Shown: positions 2,656-30,887 of the stretch, one piece after another | How positions within the stretch are numbered: position 1 is the first letter of the stretch | Layout of the letters: each line of letters opens with the position of its first letter | Source: a virus | Taxonomy: Duplodnaviria > Heunggongvirae > Uroviricota > Caudoviricetes | Reading direction: 5' to 3' (one strand) | Length of the DNA stretch: 40,942 nucleotides | IMG/VR virus record: IMGVR_UViG_2531839450_000010 | Coordinates: 1 to 40,942 of that record | Notes under the pieces: model-generated | What the model saw: the letters and a program-made list of their open reading frames with translations, nothing else | What the model was told of the DNA's origin: nothing | Databases searched by the model: none | Position numbers and translations under genes: made by a program

Positions 2656-3205
2656 TGACAAGCCCCGTCAGGCAAAGCTGGCGTTCTTTTTCACGGCGAA
2701 TCTTTAAACCTCGCAGGGGCACGCCGTTACTGTTCACGAAATCAGGGAGATGGTTACACATATTCACCCATTCCCCTTTCTGCGCCCACTTGTGGATGGA
2801 CGTTTCTACTCGCATGCCTCGCGCTTTGCTGTAGTAGGTCCGTAAGCTATTGCATCCCATATTGAATGCCGCGCTTGTCATTGCACTGAAGGCATTATCG
2901 GGCATGTCTTTGCCCCGGAAGTGCTGATTAATACAGCGTTCAGCGATCAGGATATTCTTTTCCCAATCAGCGGCGATTTGCTGGTCGGTTTTTCGCACAC
3001 CCGGCGTTACCCCGTGTGTATTACCGATCCCGTCAGTCCATACCCCCGCCGGGCACATGTATGGATCACGTCGGCAACCTTCAGCGTTACCAATCAGCTC
3101 AAGCCCCGCCTGGTTGGTTCGCACATTGCCATTACCCATCACGATGGTAATCATCACCGCGATTGCGCAAATTGCACCGCCTCCTGCGGCTGTTTTTCCC
3201 TTCAT
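2648..3205 (-). CDS. lyz: SAR endolysin (P1 Lyz-type lysozyme)
   Basis: From the internal Met the protein begins MKGKTAAGGGAICAIAVMITIVMGNGNVRT, matching the P1 Lyz signal-arrest-release domain, followed by a lysozyme fold with the Cys residues of the disulfide switch. 185 aa. The track ORF (2648..3304) starts at an upstream alternative codon. Confidence 0.9.
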   Translation of the reverse strand: MKGKTAAGGGAICAIAVMITIVMGNGNVRTNQAGLELIGNAEGCRRDPYMCPAGVWTDGIGNTHGVTPGVRKTDQQIAADWEKNILIAERCINQHFRGKDMPDNAFSAMTSAAFNMGCNSLRTYYSKARGMRVETSIHKWAQKGEWVNMCNHLPDFVNSNGVPLRGLKIRREKERQLCLTGLVNE

Positions 3206-3338
3206 AAAGACCTCATAAGCGAATTTTTTACGCTCCAGGACAAACACCCATTCACAGCCAATACCGACTGACTCGATCCCTTTAGAAGGCACAGGATAAT
3301 GCAAATCACTTGTTAGCTACGTTTCAAAGATATACATT

Positions 3339-3355
3339 ATTGCTCTAATTAATTT
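3339..3355 (+). promoter_or_regulatory. C1 repressor operator-like 17-mer upstream of ssb
   Basis: ATTGCTCTAATTAATTT versus the P1 C1 operator consensus ATTGCTCTAATAAATTT (one mismatch), about 20 bp upstream of the ssb start. Confidence 0.6.
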
Positions 3356-3374
3356 ATTTTATTAGGTAAGATAA

Positions 3375-3863
3375 GTGGCACAACGCGGTGTAAACAAAGT
3401 CATCCTGATTGGTACCCTGGGGCAAGACCCGGAGATCAGGTATATACCAAATGGCGGAGCGGTCGGAAGACTCAGCATCGCAACGAATGAATCATGGCGC
3501 GACAAGCAAACGGGCCAACAGAAAGAGCAAACAGAATGGCATAAAGTCGTTTTGTTCGGAAAACTTGCTGAAATTGCGAGTGAGTATTTACGAAAAGGTT
3601 CTCAGGTCTACATCGAAGGGAAACTTAAAACCCGTAAGTGGACAGATGACGCCGGTGTAGAACGTTACACGACGGAAATTATCGTCAGCCAGGGCGGCAC
3701 CATGCAAATGATCGGCGCTCGCCGCGACGATTCACAATTCTCAAATGGCTGGGGGCAGTCAAACCAACCTCAAAACCACCAGCAATACAGCGGTGGCAGT
3801 AAACCTCAGAGCAACGCCAATAGCGAACCTCCAATGGACTTTGAAGACGATATTCCATTTTGA
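3375..3863 (+). CDS. ssb: Single-stranded DNA-binding protein
   Basis: 162 aa with clear similarity to E. coli SSB across the OB fold ([19 protein letters not shown]...[30 protein letters not shown]) and the acidic tail [14 protein letters not shown] start. Confidence 0.9.
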
Positions 3864-4096: not shown

Positions 4097-5209
4097 TTAG
4101 AATTGGTAGGTCATACCAACAGCAACGATGTTGTCGGTTGCAACCTCAGATCTTTTGGTAAATTCACTTTCATCAATCAGGTTGATCTTGTAGTCAACGA
4201 AAGCGGACATATTTTTGTTGAAGTAATAAGTCGCACCCAAGTCGATGTATTCAACCAGATCCTGGCTGCCGAACGCACCAATATTTTCACCGCGAGAGTG
4301 CAGATAAGCGATGGACGGACGCAGGCCGAAATCAAACTGGTATTGAGCAACAGCTTCAAAGTTTTTCGCCTTGTTCGCGATAAAGTCATCACCGAAGACA
4401 GTCATATTCTGAGTTTCAGAATAAGTTGCAGCCAGGTAAATGTTATTTGCGTCATATTTCAGGCCAGTAGCCCATACTTCAGCAGTTTTACCAGAAGCAT
4501 TCAGAGGATCCTTTTTAGCATAGGATACCTGCCCATCAGTACGATCAGATTTTGCATAGGTTGCACCAACGCCAAATCCTTCATAATCGTAAGTAGCAGA
4601 CAGACCAAAGCCATCACCATTAGATTCAACTACGTCACGGCCTTTCCAGTTGTTCACTTTTGCAGCACTATCATTTTTACCTTGATACTGCAAAGCAAAG
4701 TTCAGACCATCAACCAGGCCGAAGAAATCATTGTTACGGTAGGTGGCTACGCCAGTAGCACGCTGGGTCATAAATACATCGGTCTGAGTCCAGGTATCTC
4801 CACCAAACTCAGGCAGCACGTCAGTCCAAGCGCCAATATCATAAGCTACACCATAGTTGCGACCATAGTCGATTGAACCATAATCAGCAAAACGGAGGCC
4901 AGCAAATGCAAGACGAGTTTTATCTTTATCAGAGCCCTCAGATTCAGTACGGTTACCTTTAAATTCGTACTCCCACTGACCAAAACCGGTTAACTGGTCA
5001 TTAATCTGAGTTTCACCTTTGAATCCCAGACGAGCATAAGTCTTATCTCCGTCATCACTAGCTGAAGAAGAGAAGTAATGTTCTGCGTTAACTTTGCCGT
5101 ACAGATCCAGTTTATTACCGTCTTTGTTGTAGATTTCAGCTGCTTGCGCAGACATTGCCATCAGGACAGATGCTGCAACCGCAGAGAGTGCCACTGTGTA
5201 TTTTTTCAT
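4097..5209 (-). CDS. Outer-membrane porin, OmpC/OmpF family, closest to phage Lc / NmpC type
   Basis: 370 aa with signal peptide [24 protein letters not shown]-terminal [16 protein letters not shown] and C-terminal aromatic motif ending ...GMTYQF, closely resembling the NmpC/Lc porin sequence as I recall it. Confidence 0.9.
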
Positions 5210-5948
5210 TTTTTTGCCCTTTAGATTGAACTTTTCAGTAGAAAAGAAGTCACTGCGGACAAATGTTTATCTTTTTTGGATTCGTGTTTCAAGTTTTGCA
5301 AATAAAAATCAAGGTATTTTTGTGATCAAAATCACAAATAATAGCCTTGAAAACCCAATGGACTATTAGAAAAAACTCAATTCACAGAATAAAAATTGAC
5401 AAAATAGATCAAAAAACAATCAAAAATAAGCACAAAAGACAAACAATTAAATTATCACAAAAATAATAACCGTCAAAAATAGATAGCCTGTTAATTAACA
5501 GGGCTTTAATGGATGTAGACTTGAAATCTACTTAAAAATTAGAATCAAATTAATTACTGCCGATTGGGTATTAAATTGAATCTATATTGTGAGAGTTAAA
5601 GACGATGTGTTTTAGTTATAAATGTTATTCCCTAAAATGGAGCGGTCTCATCGAATCCTGATTAATAACGAGCTAAGCTAATTCATTTTAGTATGTGTAT
5701 ATCTTTACCCTCTGAATATGCAATAAAGAAGAGATATTAAACAATATGTAGCTTCAGGATTGACTCTGGAAGAATTAAAAGATCGACTAAAGTGTTCAAT
5801 ATGTGGTGAGCGAAACGCAAAAATTAATTTTTTTGATCTAACATATTAGGTAACGGCTTGCTTCCATAACCTAAAGCAAGCCACTACGCGTTTACTTTAA
5901 GTACACAATTAACATATCAGAACAGATTATTTTTGCACAATCAGGGAG
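5210..5948. promoter_or_regulatory. Long AT-rich non-coding region upstream of the porin gene (probable promoter/regulatory region)
   Basis: About 740 bp with no ORF of 60 aa or more. Contains a perfect 16-bp palindrome CCTGTTAATTAACAGG (5487..5502) and a GTAGA/TCTAC inverted repeat (5515..5531). Confidence 0.5.
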
Positions 5949-6260
5949 TTAATATACGATCTGGTCTACATGATCACCAAAATCATCATCGTCGTCGTCA
6001 TCATCGCCACCATCTACTGCTGGCCAATCAACAAACCAGCCAGCGTAAAGATGCAGCGTTCGGAGAACATCACTTGCGGGAGCATCAAGGGTGTTAACGA
6101 ATCCCATATAGCTATTGGGATTTGCCCCAGCTATGGCTTCAGCGATCATGTCCTCGGTAATGTCACCGGAGATAATGCTTAAACGCCCGGAAACTTCTTC
6201 ATTATCATCAAATTCGATAATGGCATCTCCGCCTAATGGCGCTGCGATTTTAATCTGCAT
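5949..6260 (-). CDS. Small highly acidic protein with a poly-Asp tract, last gene of the dar-like operon
   Basis: 103 aa; ATG overlaps the end of the upstream 995-aa gene (translational coupling). Sequence ends ...VDGGDDDDDDDDFGDHVDQIVY. Confidence 0.6.
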   Translation of the reverse strand: MQIKIAAPLGGDAIIEFDDNEEVSGRLSIISGDITEDMIAEAIAGANPNSYMGFVNTLDAPASDVLRTLHLYAGWFVDWPAVDGGDDDDDDDDFGDHVDQIVY

Positions 6261-29198: not shown

Positions 29199-29215
29199 AA
29201 TGCTCTAATAAATTT
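29199..29215 (+). promoter_or_regulatory. C1 operator-like 17-mer (Op51-like) at the immI promoter
   Basis: AATGCTCTAATAAATTT, one mismatch to the consensus; a possible -35/-10 pair (TTGTAT-N17-TATCTT) overlaps it. Confidence 0.7.
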
Positions 29216-30870: not shown

Positions 30871-30887
30871 TTTGCTCTAATAAATTT
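30871..30887 (+). promoter_or_regulatory. C1 operator-like 17-mer (Op53-like) upstream of kilA
   Basis: TTTGCTCTAATAAATTT, one mismatch to the consensus, about 70 bp upstream of the kilA start. Confidence 0.7.

Follow-up and report, generated by a model that had tools for sequence, protein, structure and literature searches.

The 739-bp gap that separates a porin gene from hxr in this DNA is probably a composite and not one regulatory element, the outcome of genes having been acquired and lost in an interval of P1-like phage-plasmids that is known to vary (ssb-hxr), and its porin-proximal end is predicted to hold a cAMP-CRP-activated promoter of the host type; the two statements are held jointly and with good confidence. 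The window (the whole 40,942-nt stretch that was analysed) is, from its sequence matches, a P1/P7-like phage-plasmid. The unusual length of the gap would then be due to the deletion of isaB beside an imported porin gene that came with its own host-type promoter.

The gap (5210-5948) is the longest stretch of the window without an open reading frame of at least 60 aa, the next longest measuring 263 bp, and it is also the lowest-GC stretch of 739 bp, with 29-30% GC, where the window as a whole has 47% and the next lowest stretch 36.7%. An earlier note on this DNA had described an AT-rich, long gap without such reading frames, and these properties are borne out. It had also called the gap non-coding, which holds insofar as no open reading frame of at least 60 aa is present; however, positions 5730-5849 are the 3′ remnant of the isaB gene and not primary intergenic DNA. 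Phages JL22 and phi456 share 99.7% identity with the gap region and phage P7 shares 95.5%, and more than 100 P1-like plasmids also match it; the element is identified by these matches to P7, JL22, phi456 and the plasmids, which range from 95 to 99.7%.

In P7, the gene order at this locus is ssb, nmpC (the porin gene, minus strand), 739 bp, odaA (hxr in P1) and prt (ddrB in P1). A comparison of the P1, P7 and JL22 annotations places isaA, IS1 and isaB in the same interval of P1, and isaA-IS1-isaB is the variable region ‘RD-2’ of P1-like plasmids (PMC6906374). Both genes that flank the gap are transcribed leftwards. The gap was divided into five parts by alignments A1-A3 and an identity profile, and its anatomy, breakpoints, conservation pattern and motif positions are direct observations. 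The features of the locus are the following.

4097-5209, minus strand: porin gene of 370 aa (‘nmpC’ in P7, ‘ompD’ in JL22), from the open reading frame list and Pfam (PF00267, Porin_1, E 3.9e-148)
5210-5396, minus strand: porin upstream module, which moves together with the porin gene (alignment to chromosomal islands)
5210-5256, minus strand: predicted 47-nt 5′ UTR with the Shine-Dalgarno sequence AAGGG (about 5217-5221) and the predicted start at G 5256, placed by the ompD alignment
5264-5269, minus strand: -10-like TAAACA, 3 of 6 bases as in TATAAT (read from the sequence and aligned)
5287-5292, minus strand: -35-like TTGAAA, 5 of 6 bases as in TTGACA, with a 17-bp spacer to TAAACA (alignment)
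5321-5336, unstranded: putative CRP-type site TGTGATCAAAATCACA, a perfect TGTGA-N6-TCACA (motif search and alignment)
5391-5437, unstranded: five A-tracts with starts 10-12 bp apart (5391, 5401, 5411, 5422 and 5434), a possible intrinsic bend
5397-5728, unstranded: AT-rich spacer found in P1-like phage-plasmids only (sequence matches and identity profile)
5487-5502, unstranded: perfect 16-bp palindrome CCTGTTAATTAACAGG
5515-5531, unstranded: small hairpin GTAGA-N7-TCTAC (GTAGA at 5515-5519, TCTAC at 5527-5531)
5728/5729, unstranded: deletion junction (alignment A2)
5730-5849, plus strand: isaB 3′ remnant of 39 codons and a stop, with a 1-nt deletion near its end (alignment A2)
5850-5887, minus strand: strong hairpin with the core GGCTTGCTT-N10-AAGCAAGCC at 5854-5882 (inverted repeat, fold and P1 annotation)
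5949-6260, minus strand: hxr/odaA, encoding an acidic protein of 103 aa, the last gene of the darA-ddrA-ddrB-hxr operon (open reading frame list and P7, P1 and JL22 annotation)

The porin is annotated as NmpC precursor in P7 and as OmpD in JL22. The DNA directly upstream of its gene (5210-5396) has 79-83% identity to the DNA upstream of porin genes in three IS-flanked Escherichia coli chromosomal islands, whose contexts are mutually unrelated, and the similarity to these islands ends about 160-187 bp upstream of the porin ATG. The chromosomes concerned (Rb-50, MLI104K2 and CP131_Sichuan) carry close porin genes with the same promoter module of about 190 bp, in islands that are full of IS3, IS66, IS5 and IS21 fragments. 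Porin and promoter together seem to form an independent mobile cassette. For the lambdoid lc/nmpC/ompD genes, BLAST similarity reaches only to 63 bp upstream of the ATG, yet the motif positions are kept. The earlier suggestion of an imported regulatory region is therefore sound for the porin-proximal 190 bp or so, which accompany related porin genes in the IS-flanked islands, but it fails for the gap as a whole, about 30% of which (5729-5948) is a gene stump and the terminator of the darA operon, both overlooked at that time.

Within this module, the sequence TGTGA-N6-TCACA at 5321-5336 is the sole match in 41 kb, where 0.04 would be expected. The CRP-type half-sites are invariant in 22/22 P1-like sequences, one of which differs in the spacer, and the chromosomal islands also keep the half-sites with differing spacers. 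The box is centred at about -72.5 relative to the predicted start, and its centre precedes the ATG by 119.5 bp. The CRP misc_binding feature (1363-1383) annotated for the lc gene of phage PA-2 (GenBank J02580) occupies the same alignment columns, again 119.5 bp from the ATG. Furthermore, GA-N6-TCAC(A) and a -35-like TTGAA are conserved in the ompD orthologues of Salmonella, Citrobacter and Enterobacter, with the ompD box a net 9 bp further from the -35 element than here, approximately one helical turn (9 rather than 10-11 bp). The alignment with upstream DNA of nmpC/lc that had been proposed earlier thus matched both the CRP-type box and the -35 element in PA-2 lc and in ompD. In one chromosomal relative, Rb-50, the left half of the box is FNR-like (TTTGAT). 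Since sites for CRP and FNR resemble each other, some lineages could use a different regulator.

TTGAA is invariant in the upstream regions of the P1-like, chromosomal-island, PA-2 lc, E. albertii and ompD genes, and the aligned counterparts of TAAACA are TAAAAA in ompD and GATGAATA in PA-2 lc. A consensus promoter scan did not call the porin promoter, as TTGAAA and TAAACA together score 8/12, below its threshold; a weak -10 element is usual at activator-dependent promoters. The segment 5210-5300, which would comprise the promoter core and the UTR, is 98.9% identical in all P1-like variants, against 84-87% for the spacer. The leader of Salmonella ompD is reported to be 69 nt long (PMC3333887). 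In S. arizonae ompD, counting 69 nt back from the ATG leads to a G that follows TAAAAA by 7 nt and aligns with G 5256 of the window; this alignment predicts a 47-nt leader, a -10 element at 5264-5269, a -35 element at 5287-5292 and a CRP centre at -72.5. Class I CRP sites lie near -61.5, -72.5, -82.5 and -92.5, and the box at -72.5 would fit this series if the start is at 5256. Activation of ompD transcription by CRP is reported in PMC5137417, which cites Santiviago 2003. Porin transcription is thus probably driven by a class I, cAMP-CRP-activated sigma-70 promoter of the lc/nmpC/ompD type, in which CRP binding, the start site and catabolite control are predictions and the start is placed by the alignment to ompD. 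The earlier note had suggested a site for a dimeric regulator; the gap does contain a predicted one, but it is the CRP-type box, which had been missed, and not the 16-bp palindrome at 5487-5502.

Signals of the phage itself were looked for in the same DNA. A search for the P1 C1 operator found none in the gap and three good sites elsewhere in the window (3339, 29199 and 30871); these are one-mismatch matches at 3339-3355, 29199-29215 and 30871-30887, where 0.18 would be expected, and the site at 3339 is the annotated ssb operator. A P1 late-promoter pattern derived from LPlyz recovered LPlyz itself at 3293-3311 and nothing in the gap, and the IHF consensus had no match within the gap. As the gap holds neither a C1 operator nor a P1 late promoter, control is apparently exerted by host factors, as expected for a moron, and the porin gene appears to be a ‘moron’ under the control of host machinery. 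The gene is broken by an IS10-type element (ISVsa5) in p204A1 (p204A1-114K, 867-2075), and the porin gene of pSvP1 is interrupted by IS10 (PMC6906374). The porin appears to be dispensable and to have been inactivated repeatedly.

The hxr-proximal end of the gap has a different origin. Approximately 600 bp of pRHB31/p4D31, comprising the isaB promoter and about 160 codons, are missing in the window, P7, p204A1 and pTB31P2, and the deleted state at 5728|5729 is found in 19/22 sampled sequences. The P1 DNA on the right-hand side of IS1 starts at the position that corresponds to 5707. The stump at 5730-5849 is 88% identical to the 3′ end of P1 isaB and is without a start codon or promoter, and by this alignment it is an isaB pseudogene remnant. 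Pfam found no family in IsaB or in the stump. Intact isaB is annotated as a 606-bp CDS (201 aa) at 2946-3551 of the pRHB31-C17_2 and p4D31-1 loci, and these two plasmids have the porin gene and intact isaB together in divergent orientation. This looks like the arrangement from which both P7 and the window (isaB deleted) and P1 (IS1 and isaA in place of the porin gene) can be derived.

Beyond the stump, the hairpin at 5850-5887 folds on the minus strand with -19.9 kcal/mol (z -3.42), and the P1 record AJ000741 has a ‘terminator’ on the same strand at the equivalent of about 5846-5919. The minus-strand sequence after the stem is GTTACCTAATATG, which is not a U-run, and the scan that relies on T-runs made no call there. 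The hairpin serves as terminator for the darA-ddrA-ddrB-hxr operon; relatives use it for the convergent isaB as well. In pTB31P2, the homology breaks inside this hairpin into unrelated DNA. The same plasmid (about 2313-3400) is a mosaic, with the porin-proximal spacer like that of pRHB31 and the deletion junction and isaB stump like those of P7, a pattern that indicates recombination within the ssb-hxr interval.

Between the porin module and the deletion junction, the spacer at 5397-5728 matches only P1-like plasmids and phages, and where relatives have an intact isaB, it lies between the divergent porin and isaB genes. No other part of the locus evolves as fast: its 84-87% identity is to pRHB31/p4D31, while ssb, the porin gene and hxr stand at 97-99%. 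The palindrome CCTGTTAATTAACAGG lies in this spacer and does equal its own reverse complement, as had been reported. In 5000 dinucleotide-preserving shuffles of the gap, 3.9% contained a palindrome of at least 16 bp, and it is thus only mildly unusual. The GTAGA/TCTAC repeat that had been pointed out nearby is present but trivial, being one of 41 inverted-repeat pairs in the gap. A longer perfect palindrome, the GC-rich 22-bp AACCCCGGCAGCTGCCGGGGTT, is found in the window at 2368-2389. Its offset to the P7 annotation puts it between the convergent genes pro(B) and lydD, and it is probably a bidirectional terminator. Among 22 sequences, the 16-bp palindrome has five haplotypes, CCTGTTAATTAACAGG (8), CCTGTTAATTAATAGG (7), TCTGTTAATTAATAGG (4), CATGTTAATTAACAAG (2) and CATGTTAATTAATAAG (1). 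Only the first is perfect, and the other 14 sequences carry one or two changes that break the dyad. Pair counts on both strands gave no compensatory changes in the palindrome or hairpin, no pair having changed on both sides, and in relatives the GTAGA/TCTAC hairpin has changed on one side only. In these counts, 95% of cells are paired on the plus strand (via G-U wobble) and 86.7% on the minus strand, and neither value differs from controls. Thus, the palindrome is not a conserved feature: it is not kept in relatives, is perfect in one of five haplotypes and occupies the least conserved segment. Most likely it is a chance product of drift in AT-rich DNA, specific to its lineage.

Other roles for the palindrome have to be weighed against this view. 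If it were the operator through which a dimeric regulator, from phage or host, acts on the porin gene or on a neighbour, its perfect dyad symmetry (with so few shuffles producing one as long) and its position, upstream of the predicted porin start by about 230 bp, would make sense. However, the dyad is broken without compensation in most sequences, the site sits in the fastest-evolving segment, the porin module lacks it in every context other than P1, and no second copy occurs in the 41-kb window even with up to three mismatches allowed. The adjoining gene offers no partner either, as Pfam found no family, and hence no recognisable DNA-binding domain, in Hxr/OdaA, and so gives no link between Hxr and the palindrome. 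Hxr is annotated in P1 as ‘possible repressor, homolog of Xre’; the protein is strongly acidic, with a run of eight aspartates, and its repressor label looks doubtful. LexA was also considered and rejected, since CTGT-N6-ACAG has the wrong spacing and no LexA-type CTGT-N8-ACAG occurs anywhere in the window. An operator is for these reasons highly improbable. Slightly better placed, and still quite improbable, is a minus-strand intrinsic terminator or insulator, made of the palindrome and the GTAGA hairpin, that would protect the porin promoter from read-through from the hxr side. On the minus strand, a permissive consensus scan picks up the palindrome, followed by CTATCTATTT, as a hairpin that weakly resembles a terminator, and the palindrome and GTAGA hairpin together fold on that strand with -13.1 kcal/mol (z -3.69, 0/200 shuffles as good), a z-score that is inflated because the segment was picked after the palindrome had been seen. 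As a terminator, the stem is only 6 bp long with 3 GC pairs and its T5 run starts 8 nt after the stem, the P7-type haplotypes gain A-C mismatches in the minus-strand stems, which leaves that strand less well paired than the plus strand, and a far stronger annotated terminator is already present upstream at 5850-5887. A small residual chance is left for a minor structural role of the double hairpin. There is likewise a slim chance that the palindrome and hairpin have been recruited as a working element in the sub-lineage with the perfect palindrome (about 60 known plasmids). The phage-plasmid moron would then have gained a regulatory site in recent evolution, which could be a binding site for a dimeric protein or else a hairpin, of RNA or DNA, with an insulating or tuning effect on the porin promoter.

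Two further readings concern the gap rather than the palindrome. The earlier note had raised a hidden small RNA, to which a small protein gene may be added, and the long non-coding stretch, its stable local hairpins and a 39-aa TTG-start hypothetical ORF of JL22 (gp17, at the equivalent of 5347-5466, plus strand) speak for this. The promoter and small RNA prediction that it proposed returned little: Rfam at permissive E-values found no family in the gap (the best E was above 1, with chance hits to eukaryotic snoRNA and miRNA families), and the consensus scan gave one promoter-like site, on the plus strand, against a shuffle mean of 4.0, with no plus-strand terminator and hence no promoter and terminator pair in the gap. 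Covariation is absent, and the spacer is the least conserved segment. No conserved small ORF was found in the spacer 5397-5728; that of JL22, like other ORFs there, is lost in pRHB31, p4D31 and pTB31P2, and gp17 is probably an annotation artefact. A small RNA or small protein gene is therefore extremely improbable. In contrast, a tentative place can be given to the proposal that the gap is chiefly a target of H-NS (or OmpR) that silences or osmoregulates the imported porin gene, although as the principal explanation this is unlikely. H-NS coats AT-rich horizontally acquired DNA, and its binding to this gap, which is 70% AT and the lowest in GC in the window, is plausible on such general grounds; the five A-tracts would also suit it. 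A curvature check had been proposed earlier, and the 10-12 bp spacing of the tracts is real, but their phasing is marginal (Fourier power at 10-11 bp was matched by 89/2000 shuffles, p about 0.045) and is not conserved, being at most partly kept in pRHB31-type variants. For OmpR, no tandem array of 10-bp half-sites was recognised by eye in comparison with ompC/ompF sites, and TGAAAC, considered as an OmpR element, is the conserved -35-like hexamer itself. Silencing by H-NS could also be superimposed on CRP control instead of replacing it.

In the preferred reading, a composite gap with a CRP-activated porin promoter, cAMP-CRP would bind the box at 5321-5336 and recruit RNA polymerase from about -72.5, a class I position. 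The weak sigma-70 promoter (TTGAAA at 5287-5292 and TAAACA at 5264-5269) would then give a transcript from near 5256 with a 47-nt leader, and the porin would be made in lysogens at low glucose, like its relatives Lc and OmpD. Upstream of it, some 330 bp of drifting AT-rich spacer would merely happen to contain the palindrome, the deletion of about 600 bp at 5728|5729 would have left the dead isaB 3′ stump, and the late darA-ddrA-ddrB-hxr operon, read leftwards, would end at the 5850-5887 hairpin. This would explain the conspicuous long AT-rich gap of P7-type phage-plasmids as a moron promoter combined with the deletion of a gene in an interval known to vary. A further prediction is that host catabolite (cAMP-CRP) control extends to the phage-plasmid porin, as it does to Lc and OmpD. 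Resistance genes are common on such plasmids, and a porin encoded by a plasmid can alter outer-membrane permeability and phage receptors, and the timing of porin expression is thus of some practical value. The significance is otherwise little beyond annotation, and no new biology is opened.

The gap is ordinary and explained, and the closest known systems are the identical interval of P7, the PA-2 lc promoter and the Salmonella ompD promoter. The P7 nmpC-odaA interval (AF503408, 26647-27385) shares the locus, gene order, 739-bp length, isaB junction and CRP box. However, P7 has TCTGTTAATTAATAGG where the window has the perfect palindrome and GTGGA where the window has GTAGA, and its record has no annotated feature inside the interval. 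The P1 isaA-IS1-isaB locus has in common with the window the ssb-hxr interval, the isaB 3′ end, the darA-operon terminator and 22 bp to the left of the deletion junction, but isaA and IS1 replace the porin gene and promoter, and isaB is intact. The lc gene of the lambdoid phage PA-2 (J02580) is likewise a phage-borne porin gene of the same family, with the -35 element TTGAAA, the start region CGCAGTGAC and a CRP-type site equally distant from the ATG. It differs in that BLAST-level similarity stops about 63 bp upstream of the ATG, its left half-site is degenerate (AGAGA) whereas that of the window is a perfect consensus core, and it sits in a lambdoid late region whereas the porin gene of the window lies in the P1 ssb-hxr interval. 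Salmonella ompD belongs to the orthologous porin family and conserves the GA-N6-TCACA box, the -35 TTGAA and an A-rich -10 element. However, its box lies at about -81.5 instead of -72.5, its leader is 69 nt long compared with the 47 nt predicted here, and ompD is a chromosomal core gene whereas the porin gene of the window belongs to a mobile element.
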